A stretch of DNA of 42,297 nucleotides, taken from a virus. Location: the UHGV virus genome UHGV-1359479; one strand, written 5' to 3'. Below the pieces are notes generated by a model. That model saw nothing but the letters and a program-made list of their open reading frames with translations. It was not told the DNA's origin and did no database searches. Below are positions 8,688 to 40,325 of the stretch, one piece after another (position 1 is the first letter of the stretch; each line of letters begins with the position of its first letter). A program made the translations under genes and the position numbers.

Positions 8688-8962
8688 CCCCGCAATTTTC
8701 CAAGCACGCCCATGCCAGGCTGCAAAGCAGGCATGTCGACCCAGTCCTTGTCGCCAAAGCGCTGACAGACGGCATCGTCGTCAGTGAAACAACCGGGGCG
8801 ATCACCTTCAAGCGCAACCGGCTTTTTGTCGTCATGTCCCGTGACATGTCTACAGTCGTCACGGTCTACAAGCAGAGGAGATGCACGGTGAAGCGAGACA
8901 GAAGAGAGCGAAAAAAACAAAATCGCAGGCTGAAAAAACTCATGGGGGGCAAGCTGGCATGA
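8684..8962 (+). CDS. DUF4258-like small protein with a strongly basic C-terminal tail (toxin-like fold)
   Basis: The N-terminal FSKHAHARLQSRHV and the ...TVVTVYK pattern are typical of DUF4258. Confidence 0.45.
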   Translation: MTPQFSKHAHARLQSRHVDPVLVAKALTDGIVVSETTGAITFKRNRLFVVMSRDMSTVVTVYKQRRCTVKRDRRERKKQNRRLKKLMGGKLA

Positions 8963-9285
8963 GTGACGAGCACGGAAGCTTCATTATGTATACCGAGTCA
9001 TGGAGTGGCATACAGCTCCTGTCAAGGGAACAGCGGGGGGGGGACCTTCTCACTGCTCTGATGGTGTTCCATGGCGCCGATGACTGCGAGATGCCGGAGA
9101 TGGATCAGGCCACGGCATGTATCTTCGAGATGGTAAAGCGGAAAAACTCTTCATCCTGTTCACGGGACGAGAGAGTCCGCGAGCAGACGCGCGAACGCGT
9201 TCGTCGGTTCAGGGCAAGGAAGAAGGCGGCCGCCGCAGGGACATCAGAGACCATGGAGGAGGCGCATCATGCCGATGGCGTATAG
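8959..9285 (+). CDS. hypothetical protein, 108 aa, containing a G9 homopolymer at 9035-9043
   Basis: ORF overlapping the upstream gene by 4 nt (ATGA). The G9 tract encodes RGG. Confidence 0.4.
   Translation: MSDEHGSFIMYTESWSGIQLLSREQRGGDLLTALMVFHGADDCEMPEMDQATACIFEMVKRKNSSSCSRDERVREQTRERVRRFRARKKAAAAGTSETMEEAHHADGV
9035..9043 (+). repeat. G9 homopolymer inside the 8959..9285 ORF
   Basis: Seen in the sequence. Confidence 0.9.
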
Positions 9286-10321
9286 CTGGTTCCGAGTCTA
9301 CACAGGGACAGTAAATGACAAAAAATGGCCACGCATTGCCCGAGATGCTGGTCAGCCTGTCGGGTGTGTCGTGTCCGTGTGGCTGGCTCTTCTGGAGAGT
9401 GCATCATCTAATATAGATCGTGGGGCAGTTGACGACTTCTGCCCTGAGGATATCGACGCCCTCTACGGGTACGATGATGGCACGACGGAGAGCATCGTAC
9501 ATGCGATGCGAGACAGGGGGCTTATCTCTCCAGAGAACCGTCTGACTGCATGGGACAAGCGTCAGAATATCCCCACGGAAGATGCCCCCGAGGACCGCAG
9601 GGCATACAAGAGGGAGTGGGCCCGCAGGAAGAGAGAGGAGAGCCGGATGGCTGATTCTCCTGCTAGTGGACAGCCTGTAGACAGCTGTAGACAGCCTGTA
9701 GACAGCTGTGGACAGCCTGTAGACAGCTGTAGACAGCCTGTAGACAGCTGTAGACACGATAAAGAGAAGATAAGAGAAGATAAGATAAGAGAAGATAATA
9801 TAAATACACCCCCCTTATCCCCCCAGGGGGAAACGGGTGTGGGTGAAGCACCTTCTCCCAAAACTTCTTCCCCAAAAGAAGAAACCCCTAAGACCGGGGA
9901 AGAACCCCAGGCCGAAGACCCGGCACAAGACGTGAAGCCGAATCTCACTCACGGCAACCCCTGCTGGAAGGAGTTCTGCTACGTCTTTTCTCTCTGGCCC
10001 GTACAACAGGGCAAGGAGAAGGCGTGGAGGGAGTACGCCTACCTCAGGGCACGTCACCTCGTCCCTGAGTCCTACGCCCTTGCGGAGATCATCGAGCGCT
10101 TCAAGGCCGAGGATCGACGATGGAAGCGCGGCTACGTGCCAATGATGGCCAACTGGCTCCACGACCGGAGATGGGACGACGTACCGGAGAAAGCGCCGGC
10201 AAAGAGCTACGCCCCGGATGAGAACGGGTCCACGCCCTACGTGGACGAGCATGACCAAGATTACACGTCTTCGGGCTTTGGTTCGATTTTTGACTCGTTG
10301 AAGGAGAAAGCAAATGCGTAA
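9269..10321 (+). CDS. replication initiator / replisome organiser B, a paralogue of 6347..7414, with its own iterons
   Basis: Homologous N- and C-terminal segments. Internal tandem repeats encode QPVDSCR repeats. Confidence 0.65.
   Translation: MPMAYSWFRVYTGTVNDKKWPRIARDAGQPVGCVVSVWLALLESASSNIDRGAVDDFCPEDIDALYGYDDGTTESIVHAMRDRGLISPENRLTAWDKRQNIPTEDAPEDRRAYKREWARRKREESRMADSPASGQPVDSCRQPVDSCGQPVDSCRQPVDSCRHDKEKIREDKIREDNINTPPLSPQGETGVGEAPSPKTSSPKEETPKTGEEPQAEDPAQDVKPNLTHGNPCWKEFCYVFSLWPVQQGKEKAWREYAYLRARHLVPESYALAEIIERFKAEDRRWKRGYVPMMANWLHDRRWDDVPEKAPAKSYAPDENGSTPYVDEHDQDYTSSGFGSIFDSLKEKANA
9668..9756. repeat. iteron array B, four copies of a roughly 21-bp CAGCCTGTAGACAGCTGTAGA unit
   Basis: Direct repeats seen in the sequence, inside the gene. 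Confidence 0.7.
9757..9805. repeat. A-rich AGATAAGAGA-type short repeats (possible DNA-unwinding element), followed by the conserved C-tract element at 9806-9848
   Basis: The sequence reads GATAAAGAGAAGATAAGAGAAGATAAGATAAGAGAAGATAATATAAAT. Confidence 0.5.
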
Positions 10322-30013: not shown

Positions 30014-30423
30014 TGTGGTGGGAGGAGTATATCGGCATCCCCTTCAGGGCGATGGGCAGGGATGAGTCCGGCGTGGACTGCGTCGGCCTCGGCATCCTGA
30101 TGATGAAGCGGGAGAAGGGTGTCACTGTGGATGACACACCCCTCACGTACACGGCCGCAGAGATGCGGCATTTCCGCTCTCTCCACCGGATAGACGCCCT
30201 CATCCAGTCGGGACTCAGCAAATGGCACGATATCGGGAATGATAGACCTCATCCCCTCGACCTCGCGCTTTACACGGTTCACGGTATCGAGTGCCACGCC
30301 GCCATGGTGATAGATCCGGAGCACGTCCTGCATGTGGAGGAGCGTCACTGCGTCCATGCCGCTCCGCTGCATATTCCCGGCTATGTCCTCACGAGGATTT
30401 TACGACATGAAAGTCAGCTGTAA
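30010..30423 (+). CDS. NlpC/P60-family tail assembly protein, lambda gpK-like
   Basis: The catalytic Cys context is YIGIPFRAMGRDESGVDCVGL, with a downstream His. Confidence 0.7.
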   Translation: MMWWEEYIGIPFRAMGRDESGVDCVGLGILMMKREKGVTVDDTPLTYTAAEMRHFRSLHRIDALIQSGLSKWHDIGNDRPHPLDLALYTVHGIECHAAMVIDPEHVLHVEERHCVHAAPLHIPGYVLTRILRHESQL

Positions 30424-33400
30424 CCTGCCGGCCATTCCGGACAAAAAAGTTTTCCCCTTGAAGCCTGTGGCGGTCCGTGTCCGGCCGTCCCTCATGCGCA
30501 TGGATGTCTTCACCGCAAAAGTCATGCCCGGCATGAATGTGCTGGAAGGTCTCCGCCTGGCGTGCCGTCAGACAGGGACGCCCATCGGCATTGTCCGTAT
30601 GGCCAGAGTGTTTATCAACGGGACGCCTGTCCCCAGGAAGGATTGGAGCAGGACATATCTCCGACAGGGGGATTATGTCTCCGTGGCTGCACCCCTTGCC
30701 GGCGGCGGTGGAGGAGGCGGGGGAAAGAACCCCATGCGCATGATCCTCTCCATCGCTGTCATCGCCGTGGCCGCGGCCGCTACATGGTGGGTCGGCGGCG
30801 CAGGCGGATGGAGCTTCGGCATCCTCCCGACTCTGCATCTCGGGGCCGTGGCGGGAGCTGTAGCCGGCGGCCTCGTCCTGATGGGCGGCATGCTCCTCGT
30901 GAACGCGCTGTGCCCGGTCAGCACGCCGAAGCTCTCCGGCGCGAAAGACAGTGAGGCCGCCCAGAAGATATGGTCCATCGACGGAGCGCAAAATAAAACG
31001 GACCCCTACGGGCCCGTACCTACGGTGCTTGGCCGTGTGCGCTTCGCCCCGAGATTCGCATCCCAGAGCTACAGCGTCCTTTCTGGCAATGACCAGTACG
31101 TGCGCTATCTCTTCGTCGCCTCGACCGGCGACTGCACCGTCTCCAACCCCCGCCTCGGGGATACAAATCTCTGGAACTATCAGGGCGCCGAGTGGCGGGT
31201 TCACCGCAACTGGTCTGGCGGCGAGGCTCTGACCTGGTTCGGCTCGGCCGCGACGAGCGAGAGTTTTAGCCTGGCGATGAAAAACTCGGTCGGCTGGCAG
31301 ACAAGGACGACCGCCAGAGACTGCACGCACGCGCAGCTCATCCTCATCTTCGATAATGGCCTGAAGCATATCGACAGTGAAGGAAACGGCTCTGCCGTAT
31401 CCGTGGATGTGGAGTGCAGGTACAGGGCTGTCGGCTCCTCGGACTGGACGACATCTGGCTATCACTACGAGGGATGCACCATTAACCCGATGCGGCGCTC
31501 CATCGACCTGTGGCTTCCCGCCGGCCAGTACGAGATAGGACTCCGCAGGGTGACTCCGGACTCCGACTCCGAGAGCACCAGGGAGACGACGAGAGACACC
31601 TTCACCTGGTCGGCTCTCCAGAGCTTCAGGGCCAAGCCGGCCGTCGTCGGCGACTCCAGACATCCTATGACCCTCATTGAGCTTTCCCTGAAGGCGACGG
31701 AACAGCTGAACGGCAACATCGATGAATTCAACGTCGAATGCTGCAGTCTCGCCCCTGTCCCGAACGGCGATACCTGGAACTGGGTAGAGACGGCGAACCC
31801 TGCGTCGCTCTTCATGCGTGTGATGACTGGCACAGACATCTCGAAGCCGTGTGCCTGGGACAGCCTCGACCTCTCGGCCTGTAAAAATTTCTATGCCTGG
31901 TGTAAAAAAATGGGCTGGAAGTACAACGCACTCCTGACTTCCAAGACGAACGCCGGAGAAGTTGTGCACAACATCCTATCCTCCGGCCGCGGGTCCTACG
32001 CTCTTCTCAACGGCCATGGCGTCATCTACGATGACCCCGATGCTCCCGTTGTGGATATGCTCACGCAGCGAAATTCGTGGAATTTCCAGTCAAAGAAGTC
32101 ACTCGTCTTCGAGAAAGTGCACGGCCTGCGCATGCGCTTTCTGAACGAACAAAAGGATTATCAGGAAGATGAGCGCGTGGTCTACGATGACGGATATAAT
32201 GAGGGCAACGCCACAAATGTCATCGAATTCGAGCAGGATGGCGTGACCAACCCGGACCTTATCTGGAAGCATGGCCGTCTCAGACTCGCCGAGATGCGCC
32301 TGCGCCCCGAGACCTACACTGTGACAGTGGAAGCGGAGTCCATTACGCTGCGCAGAGGAGATAAAGTTCGCGTCCTCCATGACGCCACCTTCTGGGGCAT
32401 CACTTCCGGCGCCATTACGAAGGTCAACCTCAACGGCGACAAACTCATCGAGAGCATCGAGCTGGACGACTGGTGCCCCATGGATGCCGACAAAGCCTAT
32501 GGTGTCCGCGTCACAAACTACAAAGCGACGGATGCCTACTACAGCGTCCTGACTATCCCGAACACAGAGTCACGTGTCCTGACATTCTCCACACCGCAGT
32601 CTCCCGACACAACCGGCATCTCTGTCGGTGACATCGTAGGCTTCGGAGTTACATCGTCCGTCGGTGCCGAGTGTATCGTCCTCTCTGTCACTCCGTCCGA
32701 GAATTTCTGCGCCACCATCACATTGTGTGACGCGGCGACAAATATATATCAGGCCATCTCCGGCGCCATCCCGGCCTGGAACAGTCAGATTACAGCGGCA
32801 ACCAGGTATCAGGTGGGTAGGCCAAATCCGCCTTCAATCCTCGGCATCGTGTCTGATGAGATGGTGCTGCGGCGTAACGCCGACGGCTCACTTTCTCCCC
32901 AGATGTCAGTTACTTTCCTGCTCCCTGACCAGCCGAACGGGGTGCATGCCGCAAGCGTCCTTATGTCCGTCCGTAAAGCTGACAGTGAGGACCAGTGGGA
33001 TACCTACATGTCCAACTCCATCTTTGGCGATACATGCAGCATCCTTGACCCGAGTGTGGAAGAAGGCGTGTACTACGATGTGAAGGGCCAGATTACTACC
33101 ACGTCCGGCCTCATCTCTGACTTCTCCACGACCGTCCGGCACAAGGTCATAGGCAAGACTAATCCGCCTCCGGACGTCACGGGATTTACCGCAACGCTGG
33201 AGGCTCCGGCAGGTATCCGCCTCAACTGGGATGAGATTACCGTTCTTGACTTAGACCATTACACGATCACAGGCCTCAATGGCGGCGATACGATAGCAAC
33301 GACAATGATATGTCCGGCACCGAACACGGTTGGTACTGTTGTTTATACGGCGGTTGCTGTGGATACCGGAGGCAGAAAGAGCAAGACACCGGCCAAAGCG

Positions 33401-35302
33401 TCTGTACAGATTTATCCTCCGGCAGCGCCTGACCTTGAAGGCTCTATCATCGACAACCTGCTGCATGTAGTGTGGCAGGACTGCTCCACGTCATGGCCGG
33501 TGCGAAGGTACTTTGTCCACGATATCAGCAAGGACACTACGGACGAGGTTCTTACTACACGATGGCCCATGCCGACACGCGTGCCAGGAACATATGAATT
33601 TGCTGTATATGCAGAAGATATTTTCAGAAATAAGGGCGAAGTGACGACAGAAAGCATTGTTGTTCCCGACATTGGAACACCTGTGCCCAAAGTGGAAGTT
33701 GACGGCACGCAGTGCGTCATCGTCTGGGAGCAGGTCACAAGTCCTTTCGAGCTTTCCTACTACGAGATAAAAGACGCAGACGGCAGAACACTGGATAAGA
33801 TAAAGTCCAACTCCTACCGTTTTACGGCTCCGGCCAGTGGCGTCCTTGGCTACAGAGTGAGGGCAGTAGACATCGCCGGGAACATGTCGCCATGGGGTGA
33901 GGTGTCCTTTGACCTTACAGGGCCGGCTTCTCCCCAGCCCGTCATAACCGTAGTTGAGGACAGAGTGGAGGTATCCTGGGCCGTGCCGCTGTCTATGCTG
34001 CCTATCACCGGGTATGAGATTATCCGCCAGTGGGATGAAGCGCGCGAGGACGGCACTGTAGAGACGAAAGAGTATGATTACGGCATGATCCTTGGTACCA
34101 AGGTGACGGAGACCAAGATGATAACCGGAACACATACTTTCCTTGTCCGTGCCGTAGACTCTTCGGGAAACAAAAGCGAGTGGGGGACGGCTGATATCCT
34201 TGTCCGCGCTCCGGGTAAGGTCACTTTCTCCGGATGCTATCCGCTCGACAACAACGCGATGGTGTACTGGACAGAAGGAAAGCAGGGCACTTTCCCCGTG
34301 GAGCGATACCTTTTCGGCTACGTGGACGAGGACGGGTACGATATACAGCTTGGCTACACGTCCGCGCTTTTCACAACCATTGTGGAGACCAAAGGCGGCG
34401 ATTATACCTATTGGGTTGTGCCGGTTGATACCGCAGGGAACAGAGGCGACAGGGAAATAGTCACGTTGTCTATCACCCAGCCTCCGGAGTTCCGGCTGTT
34501 CTATGATGTGGACTCCACTTTCTCCGGAACCAAAGAAAACATGCTTTTGGACGGGAAAGGCGCCATGGTTGGCCCGTACACGGATCAGACGTGGAATGAA
34601 AATTGCGCTATCGTAGCCAGCCGTCTTGGCGTGGATGCGGATGCGATTACGTGGCAGCTTAAGACAGACAATAACTTCAACGGGTGGCTCTCTCCGGAGA
34701 TGCTTCCCGGTACGGACGGCGGCTACACTGATACTACGGGAACATACACCAGTGCGGTTGGCACCTACACGGAAATTTTTGACGTTGGGACGGATATCCC
34801 GTCCTGCCGCGTGGTCGTAACACCGACTATAGAAGTCATTGACGGCGATCCGGTAGCTTCGTGTAGGATTGAGACGTCCCTTGACGGCACGGAGTACACG
34901 ATGGCTGCGGAGGACGGCTATGTGGGTATCACGGATAGGTTCCGTTATGTCCGCGTGACGCTTAAGTGGTCTGGCGGCGGCGTGGCGGTGAAGAACCTGC
35001 ACCTCCAGTGCGCCATAAAGAAGCGCCAGGACTTTGGCAGCGTGTACGTCAGGGCTGACGACAACGGCGAGGGCTGGGAAGATGACCCCATGCAGATGGG
35101 CAAGCAGGTCAACTTCAATGTAGATTTCATTGATGTTGAAGAGCCTATCCATGTATTCATCTCTGATAACGCAACGGGAAAGACGCCAGTTGTGATATTC
35201 AAAGGCGAAAACAAGGCTCCTACGTATTTCAGAGTTGTTGTATTTGACGTCAACGGGAAGCGTACTGACGGCCTTGTACAGTGGCGTGCGCAGGGAGTAT
35301 AA
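30407..35302 (+). CDS. fused gpI-like (N-terminal ~210 aa, Gly-rich and hydrophobic) and gpJ-like central tail fibre / host-specificity protein
   Basis: The I-like C-terminal hydrophobic stretch follows a G8 peptide linker. The J-like N-terminus is LSGAKDSEAAQKIWSIDGAQ. Fibronectin-III-like repeats follow. Confidence 0.7.
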   Translation: MKVSCNLPAIPDKKVFPLKPVAVRVRPSLMRMDVFTAKVMPGMNVLEGLRLACRQTGTPIGIVRMARVFINGTPVPRKDWSRTYLRQGDYVSVAAPLAGGGGGGGGKNPMRMILSIAVIAVAAAATWWVGGAGGWSFGILPTLHLGAVAGAVAGGLVLMGGMLLVNALCPVSTPKLSGAKDSEAAQKIWSIDGAQNKTDPYGPVPTVLGRVRFAPRFASQSYSVLSGNDQYVRYLFVASTGDCTVSNPRLGDTNLWNYQGAEWRVHRNWSGGEALTWFGSAATSESFSLAMKNSVGWQTRTTARDCTHAQLILIFDNGLKHIDSEGNGSAVSVDVECRYRAVGSSDWTTSGYHYEGCTINPMRRSIDLWLPAGQYEIGLRRVTPDSDSESTRETTRDTFTWSALQSFRAKPAVVGDSRHPMTLIELSLKATEQLNGNIDEFNVECCSLAPVPNGDTWNWVETANPASLFMRVMTGTDISKPCAWDSLDLSACKNFYAWCKKMGWKYNALLTSKTNAGEVVHNILSSGRGSYALLNGHGVIYDDPDAPVVDMLTQRNSWNFQSKKSLVFEKVHGLRMRFLNEQKDYQEDERVVYDDGYNEGNATNVIEFEQDGVTNPDLIWKHGRLRLAEMRLRPETYTVTVEAESITLRRGDKVRVLHDATFWGITSGAITKVNLNGDKLIESIELDDWCPMDADKAYGVRVTNYKATDAYYSVLTIPNTESRVLTFSTPQSPDTTGISVGDIVGFGVTSSVGAECIVLSVTPSENFCATITLCDAATNIYQAISGAIPAWNSQITAATRYQVGRPNPPSILGIVSDEMVLRRNADGSLSPQMSVTFLLPDQPNGVHAASVLMSVRKADSEDQWDTYMSNSIFGDTCSILDPSVEEGVYYDVKGQITTTSGLISDFSTTVRHKVIGKTNPPPDVTGFTATLEAPAGIRLNWDEITVLDLDHYTITGLNGGDTIATTMICPAPNTVGTVVYTAVAVDTGGRKSKTPAKASVQIYPPAAPDLEGSIIDNLLHVVWQDCSTSWPVRRYFVHDISKDTTDEVLTTRWPMPTRVPGTYEFAVYAEDIFRNKGEVTTESIVVPDIGTPVPKVEVDGTQCVIVWEQVTSPFELSYYEIKDADGRTLDKIKSNSYRFTAPASGVLGYRVRAVDIAGNMSPWGEVSFDLTGPASPQPVITVVEDRVEVSWAVPLSMLPITGYEIIRQWDEAREDGTVETKEYDYGMILGTKVTETKMITGTHTFLVRAVDSSGNKSEWGTADILVRAPGKVTFSGCYPLDNNAMVYWTEGKQGTFPVERYLFGYVDEDGYDIQLGYTSALFTTIVETKGGDYTYWVVPVDTAGNRGDREIVTLSITQPPEFRLFYDVDSTFSGTKENMLLDGKGAMVGPYTDQTWNENCAIVASRLGVDADAITWQLKTDNNFNGWLSPEMLPGTDGGYTDTTGTYTSAVGTYTEIFDVGTDIPSCRVVVTPTIEVIDGDPVASCRIETSLDGTEYTMAAEDGYVGITDRFRYVRVTLKWSGGGVAVKNLHLQCAIKKRQDFGSVYVRADDNGEGWEDDPMQMGKQVNFNVDFIDVEEPIHVFISDNATGKTPVVIFKGENKAPTYFRVVVFDVNGKRTDGLVQWRAQGV

Positions 35303-35308
35303 ACTGCC

Positions 35309-35878
35309 ATGGCAGATAAAAAATGCGATATTGTAATATCCACGTCCGGAAAGTGGCGTGAAGATCAGGTTAATACAGAGGCCTTGCGCTGGAACTGGAG
35401 CAAACAGACCTTCGAGCGGTGGAACGGCTCGGAATGGGAATTGCTTGCGCCGACTTTTCAGAAAGGAGAACTGACAGAAAGTCCTCCGGAAGGGGATGTA
35501 TCATATAAAATAGCAACAACGGCGTGGATTGCCGATTACGTGAAAGCCGCCATACAGGCTTTTGTGGACACATCCGGTCTTATCCCATGGATGACTCTTG
35601 ATGAAGACCAGGCCGTCTACGCTGAAAAAGTCTTCTCCACGGGCATTGTGCTTCCGCTTCCTGACGACGATGACAACACAGACGCCATGGCGTCTACGCA
35701 GTGGGTACAGGCGCGCAAGGCCGAAATGGACACAGCAGACAGAAATGCGGATGCGAAAATTGCGGATATTACGTCAAGACAGACGGCACTTGATAATAAT
35801 GACAAAGCAATACAGGATGACATCAACACGGCTTATATTGTCATTCTGGCCGAATATCAGAAGGCCGGAGGAGAATAG
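35309..35878 (+). CDS. tail-fibre-locus protein, 189 aa
   Basis: C-terminal IQDDINTAYIVILAEYQKAGG is paralogous to the 35885..36196 gene. Confidence 0.5.
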   Translation: MADKKCDIVISTSGKWREDQVNTEALRWNWSKQTFERWNGSEWELLAPTFQKGELTESPPEGDVSYKIATTAWIADYVKAAIQAFVDTSGLIPWMTLDEDQAVYAEKVFSTGIVLPLPDDDDNTDAMASTQWVQARKAEMDTADRNADAKIADITSRQTALDNNDKAIQDDINTAYIVILAEYQKAGGE

Positions 35879-35884
35879 CAACCA

Positions 35885-36196
35885 ATGGCAGATATCACTA
35901 CATACGTGACGCTGAACACGCCGCAGGAAATAACGGGGAAGAAGACTTTTACAAAGCCTGTCACTATTCCCGCGCCGGCGGATGACGACAACTCCACGGC
36001 TCCGGCTACCACGGCTTTTTGTCAGAAACTTCTATCGCCGCTTAAAGACAAGGATAGCGCGATATCTAATCAGTTAGCCACACTGGAAGAGAACACGCAA
36101 AGTCTGGAGGCGGCTGATACTTCTTTGCAGGATGATATCAACGCCGCCTATGACGCCTTGGCGGCAGAGTACGTGAAGAACGGAGGTACCCTGTAA
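35885..36196 (+). CDS. tail-fibre N-terminal-like protein, 103 aa
   Basis: EITGKKTFTKPVTIPA motif. Paralogous C-terminus. Confidence 0.5.
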   Translation: MADITTYVTLNTPQEITGKKTFTKPVTIPAPADDDNSTAPATTAFCQKLLSPLKDKDSAISNQLATLEENTQSLEAADTSLQDDINAAYDALAAEYVKNGGTL

Positions 36197-36644
36197 TGGC
36201 TACGACTAATCACGATTTGCTTGAAACGATCCAGATGGCGATAAAATTGAGCAAGCTTGAACAGCATCCTGTGGGCAGCCTCTGGGCTACCATGAGTGAC
36301 GATAACCCCGCCGATATTTTCGGGGGGGGTGGAAGAAGTTAGGTGAGTGCAGGGTGTTACAGTGCGCCGATGACGACCATCCGGCGGGGACTACAGAAGA
36401 AGCGGGACTGCCGGATATACAGGGCTACCTCGGCGACAGCTACGGAGAGTCCGGCCTTTTCTGGAAAGTGGACGGCGCTTTTACCGCGAGGAAGACCGGA
36501 ACCCGCTTCCCAAGGTTAAGCGACAGCAACACGAGTTATACAGAAATAGATTTTAAAGCTTCTTCTTATAATCCAATTTACGGCAATTCAAATACCGTTC
36601 AGATGAAATCAATCTATTGTAACATATGGCAAAGGATTAAATAA
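36196..36644 (+). CDS. phase-variable gene copy 1. A 48-aa N-terminal ORF (36196-36342) ends just after a G8 tract (36322-36329). The downstream frame is open over 36306-36644. A one-G insertion would fuse them into a ~149-aa protein.
   Basis: Frames were checked by hand. The N-terminus MATTNHDL and the C-terminus ...TVQMKSIYCNIWQRIK are paralogous to copy 2. Confidence 0.55.
36322..36329 (+). repeat. G8 homopolymer, a slippage switch
   Basis: Seen in the sequence. Confidence 0.9.
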
Positions 36645-37115
36645 TGGCAACTACGAATCATGATTTACAGGAAACGATTGAATTGGCAGTAAAACTTGCC
36701 GTTCAGCAGGCAAAACTTGATATGTGTCCCATTGGTAAAATTTGGCCCACCTTCGGTGATGAAAACCCTGCTGATGTAGTGGGGGGGGGTATGGGAGAAA
36801 CTGAAGACGTATCATCTGCAGTGCTCTGACGATAAGCACACTGCTGGTGATATTATAGAGGCTGGACTGCCTAACATAAAAAGTGAGGGAGGCCCCCACG
36901 TGTACCAATACACACCTGGTGGCGGTTCGGCTAGTCTTAATTCAGGATGCCTTACATGGAGCAGCAACGGCGGCGGCGTCAACACTGACAACTATTCAAA
37001 CACGGGTTCGGGTAAGTTTTATATAGACGCATCAAAATCAAACGCAATTTATGGCAAATCAGATACAGTACAGCCATATAGTATTGTGCTGAATGTATGG
37101 AGAAGAATTGAATGA
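36644..37115 (+). CDS. phase-variable gene copy 2. A 61-aa N-terminal ORF (36644-36829) contains a G9 tract (36781-36789). The downstream frame is open over 36780-37115. A one-G deletion would fuse them into a ~157-aa protein.
   Basis: Frames were checked by hand. It is paralogous to copy 1 (WxKL...LQCxDDxHxAG...EAGLPxI ... VWRRIE). Confidence 0.55.
36781..36789 (+). repeat. G9 homopolymer, a slippage switch
   Basis: Seen in the sequence. Confidence 0.9.
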
Positions 37116-37570
37116 AAGATATAACTGATACAATTAATCTACTTATAAAGCATATTGCGAACATCGACTCTAAAACCGTACACCTTGACGGTGCAGAGAC
37201 TGTAACAGGCGACAAGGCCTTCACGGGTGGCGTTACTGTGGGCGGGTATGAGCCGGAATGCGTAGTGGATAAAGGCGAGGGCTACATACGGTATAGTAGT
37301 GGGTTGCAAATGTGTTTTGGCGATGTAGCAGCGATAAAAGCGGCAAATGTTAACAACGCAAATGTTACAATTGCATACGCAAAACCTTTTACCCGCGTTG
37401 CATCTGTGCAGTTAACAAGCAAACAATTCAATTATTACAGTAGTTTTGCACATAGAGTTGAGACAGATACAAACAATATTAATTGTGATTGGTGGACAGA
37501 TAACTCCAACATTATGGCGGTAGCTATAACCTGCTACGGGTTTTATCTGGCTATCGGTTTTTGGAAATAA
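37112..37570 (+). CDS. AT-rich tail-fibre-locus protein, 152 aa
   Basis: The LDGAETVTGDKAFTGGVTV motif is shared with other fibre-locus proteins. Confidence 0.5.
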   Translation: MKDITDTINLLIKHIANIDSKTVHLDGAETVTGDKAFTGGVTVGGYEPECVVDKGEGYIRYSSGLQMCFGDVAAIKAANVNNANVTIAYAKPFTRVASVQLTSKQFNYYSSFAHRVETDTNNINCDWWTDNSNIMAVAITCYGFYLAIGFWK

Positions 37571-37583
37571 AGAGGTATCAGTC

Positions 37584-39395
37584 ATGGCGGCGGATTTCGC
37601 GAAACCGAATCTTGGTAACAAAATAAAAACAGACGTCCCGGGTATTTTTGATATTCTCCAGACACTTGCCACAGGCGCGCTGTCCGGGACGATAAACACC
37701 CCAACCGGTGCGCTTAATTTTTATGTAGACGGCAACAATAACTTAAAAATCCAGAGACTGGACGCTAGCGGGGCGTGGGTAGATATACCCCAGCTCAAAA
37801 ATGATGCAGATACGGTAGACGGATACCACGCTTCCACCAGCACCACCAAGAGCACAATCCCCGTCAGGGACAGCAACGGCAATCTTCCAGGCTCCATCAC
37901 GGGTAACGCGCCCACGGCCACCAAGGCGCAGCAGCTTACGGATGTAAACCCCGTAGCCATGGGCGGAACGGGAGCGTCCACGGCCGCTGACGCACGAACG
38001 AACCTTGGCGTGCCGCCTATCAGCCACGCGTCCGTAGCCACCACCTATGGCGTCTCCACAGATAAGGCCTATGGCCACGCGAAGGCTACGGGCACGACGC
38101 CCAAAAAAGACAGTCTGGCAGGAACAGTGGGGAACGAGACGTCCACCTTCGCCCGAGGGGATCATCAGCATCCCCGTGCAGTCTTCTTCGGGACATGCAC
38201 GACGGCACTCGATACGCCCGCCAAGGTAGTATCCATCCCCGACTTCATTCCGTCTGAAGGGGCCTTCGCCCTCATCAGGTACATCCCCGAGGCCACCCGC
38301 ACGGTGACGACCAAGGCGGAAGACGGCACAGAGACGACTTCCACTCTGACGCTGAAGGCGACATCAGACCCGCTCACGCTCTCGGTGAATGCCGGGACAG
38401 CGCTCCCCATCCGGACATCCGGAGGGCAGGTCATCGGCACGGAGCTTATCTCCGGAGGCACGTATCTTTTTGTGTACGCGGGGGACGCGTACCTCTACGC
38501 AGGAGGAACCAAGCTCGCGAATGAACCGGCTGGGGCAGTTCTCTCCGATCTGACGAAGGGGACTGCTCCGGATACGCTACGGGCGCCATCCATCGCCGTG
38601 TACGACAAGACCGGAGCGGAGATCGGAACGCTGACCCTCAAAGTCGGCACAGATAACTCCACATCCCTGTCCCTAAACGTCCACCCCGGCACCGAGGCCG
38701 GCTCCCCCACACAGACTGGCACGATCGAGGTCGGCTACGACGCCTCCGGTTCAGTGTACACAGCGGCCCCGACCCCTGCCACGCAAGACAAATCTACGAA
38801 GATCGCCACCACCGAGTATGTCAATGACAACGCCTGCATGCTATACGGCGATCAGACCATCGCCGGAGCCAAAACTTACGCGTCCCCGCTGACCTGCACG
38901 GATCTCATCTCGGGAAAAAGACTCACCCTTAACAACGGCGTAAACAGCAACCTGGATTTCTGCGCTAACAACGTGACTTCCGGCGGCGCTTATCTTGCAG
39001 GCAGTTCCATGGCCAGTAATACATGGAAACAGATTGCCCTGCTGGAGGATGCTGAGTCCGTGGCCACATCGAAAGCCGCGGCATGGTCGCGCGACAGACA
39101 GATGGCTCCGGACGGAACCAAGTGGGGCTTCGATTCGGATACGACCTACACGGCGCCGAATAACGGATTTATCAGGATCGAGGACGTGAATCGGCATAAT
39201 ACCGTGAACACCTATGTGCTGAACATCAATGGCGGCGTAGCGATGCGCGTTACAGCGTCAGGGTATGGATCGGGCGGCCAGCATGGCGGGATCGACGTGT
39301 GCTACCCCATACGTGGCGGATGGACGTACAGCGTATGGCGCGAAGCTGGTGACAGCTGGCCTAACTGTATGGAGTTTATTCGATGCTACTTCTAG
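37584..39395 (+). CDS. tail fibre protein, 603 aa
   Basis: Thr/Gly/Ala-rich beta-structure repeats in the fibre locus, upstream of the assembly chaperone. Confidence 0.7.
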   Translation: MAADFAKPNLGNKIKTDVPGIFDILQTLATGALSGTINTPTGALNFYVDGNNNLKIQRLDASGAWVDIPQLKNDADTVDGYHASTSTTKSTIPVRDSNGNLPGSITGNAPTATKAQQLTDVNPVAMGGTGASTAADARTNLGVPPISHASVATTYGVSTDKAYGHAKATGTTPKKDSLAGTVGNETSTFARGDHQHPRAVFFGTCTTALDTPAKVVSIPDFIPSEGAFALIRYIPEATRTVTTKAEDGTETTSTLTLKATSDPLTLSVNAGTALPIRTSGGQVIGTELISGGTYLFVYAGDAYLYAGGTKLANEPAGAVLSDLTKGTAPDTLRAPSIAVYDKTGAEIGTLTLKVGTDNSTSLSLNVHPGTEAGSPTQTGTIEVGYDASGSVYTAAPTPATQDKSTKIATTEYVNDNACMLYGDQTIAGAKTYASPLTCTDLISGKRLTLNNGVNSNLDFCANNVTSGGAYLAGSSMASNTWKQIALLEDAESVATSKAAAWSRDRQMAPDGTKWGFDSDTTYTAPNNGFIRIEDVNRHNTVNTYVLNINGGVAMRVTASGYGSGGQHGGIDVCYPIRGGWTYSVWREAGDSWPNCMEFIRCYF

Positions 39396-39859
39396 CTGCC
39401 GGCTGTCCGGCCACCGGGAAAAGCCACTACGCACGCATACTCCTTTCTGGGATCAGGGTTATCGAGTTCGACGAGTGGGCATGCATGTGGTACGGCGTTC
39501 CATTCGTTGATGCTATGGACAAGTATTCTGCTGAATATCCTAAAAGTCAGCATGAATATTTCAATGAGATAGGTATCCAATACCTACAATATGGAGATAT
39601 TGTTGTGTGTGATACATTCACATACAGGAAAGACAGGTTAGATTTTTTGGAATACATGAATGCAAAATTCAATATTCCAAAGAATAAAATATGTATTAAA
39701 TATCTAGTTTCGGCATATCCTTTGATAAAAAAGCGCAATCAGGAACGTAAAACTGTCCTTCCAGAGAATGTTCTTCTCACAATGTACTACAATCAGCAGT
39801 ACCCCGTCGCCGATGAAGGCTTCGGTAAAGTGGAGATAGTATCAAATGAGTATCAATAA
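39383..39859 (+). CDS. T4 Pnk-like polynucleotide 5'-kinase domain protein (P-loop only, no phosphatase domain); AT-rich moron
   Basis: Walker A is GCPATGKSH, against T4 Pnk GCPGSGKST. IVVCDTFTYRKDRLDF matches VIISDTNLNPERRLAW, and LPENVLLTMY matches VPIDVLRSMY. Confidence 0.55.
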   Translation: MLLLAAGCPATGKSHYARILLSGIRVIEFDEWACMWYGVPFVDAMDKYSAEYPKSQHEYFNEIGIQYLQYGDIVVCDTFTYRKDRLDFLEYMNAKFNIPKNKICIKYLVSAYPLIKKRNQERKTVLPENVLLTMYYNQQYPVADEGFGKVEIVSNEYQ

Positions 39860-40325
39860 CATTCAGGATATGGAATCCGCGGCGGAGTCTTATCCGGCCG
39901 CGATGTTCGCTCATGACACGGTCTACCTGAAGATCATGAGTGACGGCACTGTCCGGGCTCTCGCCGATAAAGCCACGGTGAATGCTCCTGTAGAGTACGG
40001 CGGGGGCGGCGGCTCATACGATATGGAAATATCTACAGAAACATGGAAGGAAAGCGAATATACCGCCCGCGTCCGCAACGGGAAAATCGTCCTCGGGAAG
40101 ACTCAGGATGAGAAGCAGTCAGAGTGGGAAGCGGCCATCAGGGCGGAGCGGGATCGCCGTCTCCGCCTGTGCGACAAGATGTCCCCCATGCGCTGGAACG
40201 TCCTTACAGAGGAAGAGCGCGCTACGTGGGCGGCGTATCGTCAGGCGCTTCTCGATATCCCCGAGCAGGACGGGTTCCCGTGGGGCGGGGTGGTGGATAG
40301 CGCGCCATGGCCGGAGATCCCGTAA
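39846..40325 (+). CDS. tail fibre assembly chaperone (Caudo_TAP-like)
   Basis: The C-terminal pattern is RATWAAYRQALLDIPEQDGFPWGGVVDSAPWPEIP. Confidence 0.6.
   Translation: MSINNIQDMESAAESYPAAMFAHDTVYLKIMSDGTVRALADKATVNAPVEYGGGGGSYDMEISTETWKESEYTARVRNGKIVLGKTQDEKQSEWEAAIRAERDRRLRLCDKMSPMRWNVLTEEERATWAAYRQALLDIPEQDGFPWGGVVDSAPWPEIP

Follow-up and report, generated by a model that had tools for sequence, protein, structure and literature searches.

The 42,297-nucleotide virus genome UHGV-1359479, hereafter referred to in its whole length as the window, carries at its tail-fibre locus two tandem paralogous genes that are each broken by a homopolymeric run of G's. We propose that these runs are probably the basis of a heritable ON/OFF switch, operated by slipped-strand mispairing, of accessory receptor-binding tips. 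Among relatives the same site holds tracts of G7 to G11 in both in-frame (ON) and out-of-frame (OFF) states, which bears out the initial annotation of the window, in which a slippage-prone on/off switch in tail-fibre paralogues had been suggested. Below, Lxxx are locus labels of related contigs and P00xx are labels of database proteins; protein lengths are given in amino acids (aa), and dN/dS is the ratio of non-synonymous to synonymous divergence. The two genes and their tracts are the following.

36196..36644, + strand: tip gene copy 1, OFF in the window; Gp10_C-like product of 149 aa after restoration (Pfam PF21939, intact homologues, dN/dS)
36322..36329, + strand: G8 tract of copy 1, coding for the GG(G) loop that precedes an invariant Trp; G9 would be in frame
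36644..37115, + strand: tip gene copy 2, OFF in the window; Gp10_C-like product of 156 aa after restoration (PF21939 profile, intact homologue P0001)
36781..36789, + strand: G9 tract of copy 2 (GT-G9-TA-TGG); G8 is in frame and gives GGVW

Translation of copy 1 from the ATG at 36196 ends at a stop at 36342, giving 48 aa with the last residues ..NPADIFGGGGRS. Its N-terminal part occupies 36196-36321, and its C-terminal part (36330-36641) lies in the -1 frame, which is open to 36644. Copy 2 reads from the ATG at 36644 to a stop at 36829 (61 aa); the N-terminal part spans 36644-36778 and the C-terminal part 36792-37112, in the +1 frame and open to 37115. The positions of the two tracts, one per paralogue, and the open downstream halves are therefore as first described. 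One additional G restores copy 1 to 149 aa, exactly the size that had been predicted, and removal of one G restores copy 2 to 156 aa rather than the predicted ~157 aa. The restored copies align end to end across the tract with 44% identity (E 4e-37). Start and stop codons overlap at the gene junctions (TAATG and ATGA), and the cassette has a G+C content of 0.47-0.50 against 0.54-0.62 in the flanks, in agreement with its earlier description as AT-rich. An internal restart at GTG 36354, which has an AGGTGA-like sequence upstream, was considered for the C-terminal part of copy 1 and set aside, as the aligned relatives do not conserve the putative ribosome-binding site.

A homopolymer scan of the window found only three G/C runs of at least 7 bases, namely the G8 at 36322, the G9 at 36781 and one more G9 at 9035-9043. 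In 13 other genes of the window GGG accounts for 21% of the glycine codons, and none of the 52 Gly-Gly pairs is spelled GGG-GGG. Because GGG is scarce and GGG-GGG absent from the other pairs, the runs in the tip genes are not the ordinary outcome of glycine coding. The gpJ-like protein of the window provides an example: its residues at about 124-131 are eight glycines encoded as GGC GGC GGT GGA GGA GGC GGG GGA, so that the poly-Gly stretch is coded without a homopolymer and the genome avoids the run there.

We then compared the tract site among 270 loci collected from the protein database and from searches of genome, viral and metagenome contigs. A scan of viral contigs with a single protein gave distant homologues only, which have no G runs, whereas alignment-based scans reached the close relatives. 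In the close clade, whose members share an N-terminal part with an identity of 80% or more, the position that matches GG(G/V)W is a poly-G tract in nearly all alleles, with variable length in independent samples. The tract lengths and frame states, taken for copy 1 from the aligned series, are listed here.

Copy 1, G8: window, L258 and L259; OFF
Copy 1, G8TA: L011 and L015; OFF
Copy 1, G9TA: L012-14 and L265-67; OFF
Copy 1, G10TA: L262-64; ON
Copy 1, G11A: L261; ON
Copy 2, G8TA: L011 and L012-14; ON
Copy 2, G9: L261; ON
Copy 2, G10: L015; ON
Copy 2, G9TA: window; OFF
Copy 2, G10AA: L262; OFF
Copy 2, G7: L179; OFF
Copy 2, G8: L243; OFF

The 45 nucleotides 5' of the copy 1 tract are identical among L012, L262 and L265. 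After removal of duplicates we obtained 34 distinct alleles. Those with at least seven G's (G7-G11) comprise 16 ON and 11 OFF alleles; conversely, tracts interrupted to six G's or fewer (for example GGGGGGAGG, GGGGGTGGG and GGAGGAGAG) are ON in six cases and OFF in none. Distant homologues (30-58% identity) have the loop FGGTW coded by GGC, GGT and ACA, with no run. Two further independent samples, with no more than 89% sequence identity to the window, have the identical G8 OFF allele. Database proteins of the copy 1 type number about 10 full-length sequences against about 16 fragments that start right after the tract. In the full-length ones the loop reads GGW, GGGW, GGGGW, GGGVW or GGRW; judging from these sequences, the loop accepts two to four residues, and several tract lengths are ON for this reason. 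We also considered a rule by which the two genes of a tandem pair are never both ON, and this is ruled out by L261 (ON/ON).

The broken genes are under selection. Copy 1 was OFF in all five lineages first compared, and each of them keeps 104-116 codons open in the downstream frame. For the conserved codons of copy 1 past the tract, dN is 0.01-0.15 and dS 0.4 to >1.5, for a dN/dS of 0.01-0.14. Between L258 and L012, the 30 codons right after the tract show 15 synonymous and no non-synonymous changes. The downstream frame is under strong purifying selection although it is OFF, and a dN/dS this low means that the frame is therefore translated often enough for selection to act. The relaxed constraint and decay past the break that mark a pseudogene are not seen here, and the initial argument for function rather than decay stands.

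To what kind of protein do these frames belong? Restored copy 1 matches the Pfam profile PF21939 (Gp10_C) with 32.9 bits (cut-off 27, E 1.5e-7), in a match that runs through the tract. Restored copy 2 reaches 24.1 bits, short of this cut-off, but its match takes in profile positions 6-139 of 139, and many homologues of the tip proteins carry a precomputed PF21939 match. Intact homologues exist for both: P0039 and P0040 are 83-86% identical to copy 1, and P0001 is 76% identical to copy 2 over 100% of the query. A fold search on the tip protein gave weak matches, with gp11 and gp10 as the top structural neighbours; we treat these matches as no more than supporting. Gp10_C is the C-terminal head domain of the T4 baseplate protein gp10, a fibre head of the gp10/gp11/gp12 type (PDB 2fkk, 1el6).

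Alignments divide the tip proteins into conserved ends and a variable centre. The N-terminal region consists of a helix and the first strands (..H.L.E.I..A.K.....P.G......D.(N/D)P....GG(G/V)W...) and is followed by the conserved stretch LQC(S/A)DD.H.AG...EAGLP.I.G. The central ~50 residues are hypervariable and wholly different between alleles (36420-36560 and 36870-37030 in the window), and the C-terminus is again conserved (..AS.SN.IYG.S.TVQ......W.R(I/V)). Central segments have been exchanged between the copy 1 and copy 2 scaffolds: the middle of copy 1 in L011 matches the middle of copy 2 in L012, and the central segment of copy 1 in L258 matches that of P0030. This exchange suggests that the specificity segments are shuffled by recombination. 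The proteins are presumably small trimeric fibre tips of which the central segment touches the receptor; a role in receptor binding is suggested by their position in the tail-fibre locus, the homology of the head domain and the hypervariable centre. Some tip genes in relatives contain an in-frame TAG at conserved positions, at about 8145 in L144, where relatives have the Q of WQKL, and at the position expected for the invariant W in L184 (about 1140), L195 (about 960), L200 (about 890) and L192 (about 4690). These codons are either nonsense alleles or belong to phages with a reassigned TAG.

Homopolymer phase variation at contingency loci is well known from bacteria, where it affects surface genes of Neisseria, Haemophilus, Campylobacter and Helicobacter. 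The tip genes resemble such loci in having a repeat within the coding region, presumably reversible frameshifting, ON and OFF states among relatives and a conserved protein. The repeat here is a simple-sequence tract within the reading frame (G8 and G9 at the GG[G/V]W loop), with length polymorphism, ON and OFF alleles and a protein under selection. We favor switching of this type because selection keeps the homopolymer in ON and OFF alleles alike, with its length polymorphic at one site, and because the protein is conserved on both sides of the tract and broken runs are always in frame.

The proposed mechanism would work as follows. The products would be accessory tail-fibre tips of ~150 aa, each made of an N-terminal helix and a head domain of the T4 gp10/gp11/gp12 type, whose hypervariable centre of ~50 residues presumably contacts the receptor. 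One clade of human-gut phages codes the conserved loop motif F/V-G-G-(G/V)-W all in G's, creating a homopolymer of G7-G11 that would gain and lose bases by slipped-strand mispairing at DNA replication. Each gene would thereby flip, reversibly and heritably, between an in-frame state in which the tip is made and an out-of-frame state that yields a stub of 48-61 aa. In the window both genes are OFF, copy 1 having G8 in place of the G9 that it needs and copy 2 having G9 in place of G8, and the virion would depend on its remaining tips, a 152-aa protein and a 603-aa fibre encoded just downstream. We infer that switching would be frequent in the population, would take place at the DNA rather than the RNA level and would, through receptor binding, affect host range.

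Slippage during expression is the alternative that fares best, although we consider it unlikely. Stuttering of RNA polymerase, or +1/-1 shifting by the ribosome, would here produce a fixed minority of full-length tip, and OFF would amount to ON at a low level. Such a process would account for the strong conservation of copy-1-type genes that are mainly out of frame, in 7 of 9 DNA alleles and with fragments outnumbering full-length proteins (about 16 against about 10), and a homopolymer permits perfect re-pairing in both directions. However, programmed sites have one frame relation, whereas the linker length modulo 3 at this site is 0, 1 or 2 among relatives. Since the shift required can thus be +1, -1 or none, a fixed programmed frameshift is excluded as the sole mechanism; programmed transcriptional slippage, which the initial annotation had offered as an alternative, fits poorly in that role. 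Moreover, in-frame alleles hold equally long tracts (G9-G11), where slipping would just cut the yield. We also count against this explanation that bacterial RNA polymerase slips far better on runs of A or T than on runs of G. Slippage in expression may nevertheless coexist with slippage of the DNA and add low-level expression from OFF templates.

A neutral mutational hotspot, the second alternative, appears improbable to us. Here the runs would be incidental to Gly-Gly-Gly, and frameshifts would be mildly deleterious events in dispensable genes nearing loss. The single tip-gene copy of L017 does mark the tip genes as accessory, tract lengths drift, and neither the window nor L243 has a copy that is ON. 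Against loss, on the other hand, the downstream frames remain open for at least 100 codons and keep their low dN/dS at saturated synonymous divergence, and OFF alleles have gained new central segments in common with ON alleles. The spelling of the loop is equally hard to explain as incidental: all-GGG coding survives amid scrambled flanking synonymous sites while the rest of the genome avoids it, and every interrupted tract is in frame. Finally, sequencing or assembly error in genes that are truly in frame is very improbable: a base more or less in a homopolymer is a classic artefact and some of the related contigs have 2-5x coverage by name, but the other long genes of the window are intact and its assembly is therefore not generally frameshift-prone, the identical G8 OFF allele recurs in two more samples at 89% nucleotide identity, and OFF states occur at these sites and almost nowhere else in many short-read assemblies of independent origin, for which a variety of assemblers was used.

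Several observations weigh against heritable slipped-strand switching and its setting as we describe them. Tract length is uniform in the three samples of one lineage (L012-L014) and in the three of another (L265-L267), so that on this scale the consensus does not change. The predominance of OFF among the copy-1-type DNA alleles could equally mean slippage at the RNA level or at the ribosome. The contrast between long and interrupted tracts comes from small numbers (OFF in 11 of 27 vs 0 of 6), and all sequences are consensus assemblies. The host assignment given below depends on one metagenome bin.

Poly-G tracts are not limited to these two genes. Across 24 representative loci of the clade (328 kb) there are 35 G/C runs of at least 8 bases, of which 25 lie at GG(G/V)W and 8 in other small tip genes; only 2 of the 35 are outside tip genes, one of them the G9 at 9035 in the window. 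The homologue of the 152-aa tip protein carries a G9 in L262 (5514-5522) and L265 (5679-5687), in the context ..NFTGTLQ-G9-YTVDAVV.., and is split there into 47 + 86 aa; the corresponding site has mixed codons in the window, L011 and L012. A second Gp10_C paralogue, just 3' of the tip gene, has a G8 or G9 at GGG(Q/K)P(F/H).IMPP and is OFF in L096 (8803-8810), L099 (8835-8842) and L169 (7311-7319) and ON in L176 (1535-1543). In L179 (9259-9267) and L243 (9239-9247), which are different phages, the gene of a 129-aa tip protein (MALPW.LKNYLRIGGGRLTG..) carries a G9 that is in frame and close to the N-terminal end.

Further runs were observed nearby or at a greater distance. A small gene between the Sequestin-like and Gp53-like_C open reading frames (ORFs) holds a length-polymorphic run, gttgacT-G6/7-atggtac, with G6 in L261 (5631-5636) and L015 (9193-9198) and G7 in L265 (5221-5227) and L267 (1709-1715). 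G8-G9 runs also occur in or next to Gp10_C-like genes in L021 (1503-1511 and 2418-2426), L022 (779-786), L046 (7728-7735) and L052 (4395-4403). These fibre loci are on contigs of metagenome-assembled genomes (MAGs) assigned to Erysipelotrichaceae, Veillonellaceae and Gastranaerophilales, with one Desulfovibrionaceae contig, a distant match only. Gating of tips by poly-G may, to judge from these sequences, be broader among gut phages.

The cassette is found on different phage backbones. It stands behind a gpJ-type tail tip in the window and L012 and behind a 1063-aa protein in L243 (7582-9600), and in L015 (7000-9700) and L261 (3565-6083) it adjoins genes for Mtd_N-domain, Sequestin-like and Gp53-like_C proteins. 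Its presence on unrelated backbones indicates that the stem-plus-tip cassette, tracts included, moves horizontally between phages. A broader reading, to which we give somewhat less than an even chance, is that temperate gut phages carry mobile arrays of mini tips, each gated by its own poly-G in a length-tolerant loop, so that lysogens would release combinatorial (2^n) sets of tips with shuffled segments. Such arrays would be the phage counterpart of a bacterial multi-gene contingency system, the opa genes.

The remaining genes of the fibre locus are the following.

35309..35878, + strand: 189-aa fibre stem/adaptor, directly 3' of the gpJ-like gene; weak PHROG tail-fibre match
35885..36196, + strand: 103-aa stem/adaptor paralogue, an ORF with the C-terminus ..LQDDINAAYDALAAEYVKNGGTL; its stop runs into the ATG of tip gene 1 (TAATG)
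37112..37570, + strand: third small tip gene, 152 aa, intact in the window; PHROG tail fibre C-terminus
37584..39395, + strand: 603-aa tail fibre, part of the conserved backbone; 86% identical to L017 in nucleotides, PHROG match
39383..39859, + strand: 158-aa P-loop kinase-like protein; AAA_33, PHROG polynucleotide kinase/ATPase
39846..40325, + strand: tail-fibre assembly chaperone; Pfam PF16778 (E 6.5e-17), PHROG tail fibre assembly families

The 189-aa stem ends in a coiled-coil motif (..DDINTAY..AEYQKAGG), and a syntenic gene of 186-191 aa follows gpJ in L012, L017, L262 and L265. The C-terminal segment ..AAYDALAAEYVKNGG of the stem may be a coiled coil and is a candidate docking site for the N-terminal helix of the tips. 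A protein identical to the 103-aa stem lies upstream of copy 1 in the independent samples L258-L260, and in L243, which has an unrelated phage backbone, a 137-aa protein sharing the C-terminal motif of the 103-aa stem precedes the tip genes. In L012 (7498-7503), L262 (3987-3992) and L265 (3826-3831) the 103-aa stem gene ends in ..AAC GGGGGG ACG CTC TAA TGG.., where, by our reading of the sequence, one additional G would join stem and tip gene 1 in a single frame across the overlapping TAATG; the window reads GGAGGT here. The order of fibre gene, AAA_33 gene and chaperone gene is also found in L012, L262 and L265. Relatives also conserve the kinase-like gene 39383-39859, whose place between fibre and chaperone genes is unusual for such an enzyme.

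The window is 100% identical to a human-gut metagenome scaffold in ENA (ERZ28568400, BRIT16-1_SAMN02333979 scaffold_798), from a short-read, Illumina-era assembly. It encodes a CI-like S24 repressor, RecT, an exonuclease, TerL, an HK97-type capsid protein, a lambda-type tape measure protein and a gpJ-like protein of 1656 aa (30332-35302), and because of these repressor, recombination, head, tape-measure and gpJ-like genes the phage is a temperate lambda-like siphovirus. The host is probably Desulfovibrio: the tail genes are 82-86% identical to those of L017, a contig from the bin of a MAG of uncultured Desulfovibrio, and in this contig the stem and tip cassette (35295-37584) is replaced. No tRNA genes were found in the window. 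A DNA search with the fibre region against 50,697 phage records gave no match, and tblastn of restored copy 2 against the same collection returned two uncultured faecal phage contigs only (33-34% identity), and therefore no cultured relative; no homology to receptor-binding proteins of Campylobacter phages appeared in this search. In the literature on Desulfovibrio prophages we found no account of the tip locus, nor any mention of such tracts in a paper on prophages of Desulfovibrio piger.

The G9 at 9035-9043 requires separate treatment. It lies, as initially annotated, in the ORF 8959-9285, where it is read in frame (..SREQRGGDLL..). The 98%-identical relative L268 has G6 at this site and L269 has GGAGGG; both are in frame and no OFF allele was seen. 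We therefore rejected this tract as a third switch and regard it as a three-base expansion, so that its location was correctly given and it is not part of the switch system. We would guess from its sequence that the product is a replication-organiser-like protein. In the overlapping ORF 9269-10321, at about 9650-9760, the peptide QPVDSC(R/G) is repeated four times in tandem and is followed by KIRED twice, which implies a 21-nucleotide tandem DNA repeat in a probable replication-region gene.

The closest known system is that of the Campylobacter Fletchervirus phages, in which genes for receptor-binding proteins contain hypermutable tracts of G7-G11 (Sorensen et al., 2021, Cell Rep 35:109214; as summarized in bioRxiv 10.1101/2025.10.21.683753 and cited in PMC12823448). 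According to that summary the tracts lie, as in the window, within tail or receptor-binding frames, with several such genes per phage. Changes in tract length switch the frame ON and OFF and give mixed populations there, whereas switching at the tip locus is predicted from assemblies. The Fletchervirus phages are lytic myoviruses of Campylobacter, while the window is a temperate lambda-like siphovirus from the human gut, probably of Desulfovibrio. Its proteins, Gp10_C-like mini tips of ~150 aa with the tract in one conserved loop of tandem paralogues, are unlike those of Fletchervirus, and a cassette common to unrelated backbones also sets the tip locus apart. In T2 and T4, phage contingency loci have been proposed on the basis of runs of at least 6 bases that occur in genes of many classes (Gomez et al., 2025, bioRxiv 10.1101/2025.10.21.683753). 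The same preprint, which generalizes the concept of phage contingency loci, reports that simple repeats are under-represented in coliphage tail fibres. The tip locus differs in that its long G runs are nearly confined to tip genes.

The restored tips share with the heads of T4 gp10, gp11 and gp12 the motifs PxG..NP..GG.W and ..TVQP...W.RI and a profile match across the tract. In the window the head domain stands alone after a short helix, in a protein of 150 aa with a hypervariable insert, whereas in T4 it is the C-terminus of a 600-aa baseplate protein, and both sequence and structure scores are weak. Elsewhere, tail fibres are switched by DNA inversion, as in the Mu G segment and the P1 C segment, or diversified by retroelements, as in Mtd of the Bordetella phage BPP-1. 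The predicted outcome is alike, a population with alternative receptor-binding tips from one locus, and proteins with the Mtd_N domain adjoin the cassettes of L015 and L261. However, the tip locus involves no invertase, inverted repeats, reverse transcriptase or template repeat, and its switch would be a homopolymer frameshift.

The only phages in which poly-G phase variation of receptor-binding proteins has, to our knowledge, been demonstrated are lytic phages of Campylobacter. The tip locus is probably a further case of this known, Fletchervirus-like poly-G mechanism, in a different protein family, phage type, host and habitat, and is set apart by its tandem paralogues and multi-gene arrays. 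It would extend the poly-G strategy to uncultured temperate gut phages, in several families of tip genes and on at least three backbones, in a form that can be recognized from the sequence. Frameshifted tail genes in gut virome assemblies should accordingly not be dismissed as errors or pseudogenes, and host-range prediction for such phages must allow for switchable tips. With tract positions, ON lengths and natural locked alleles known, the locus is a concrete system in which such switching can be tested.

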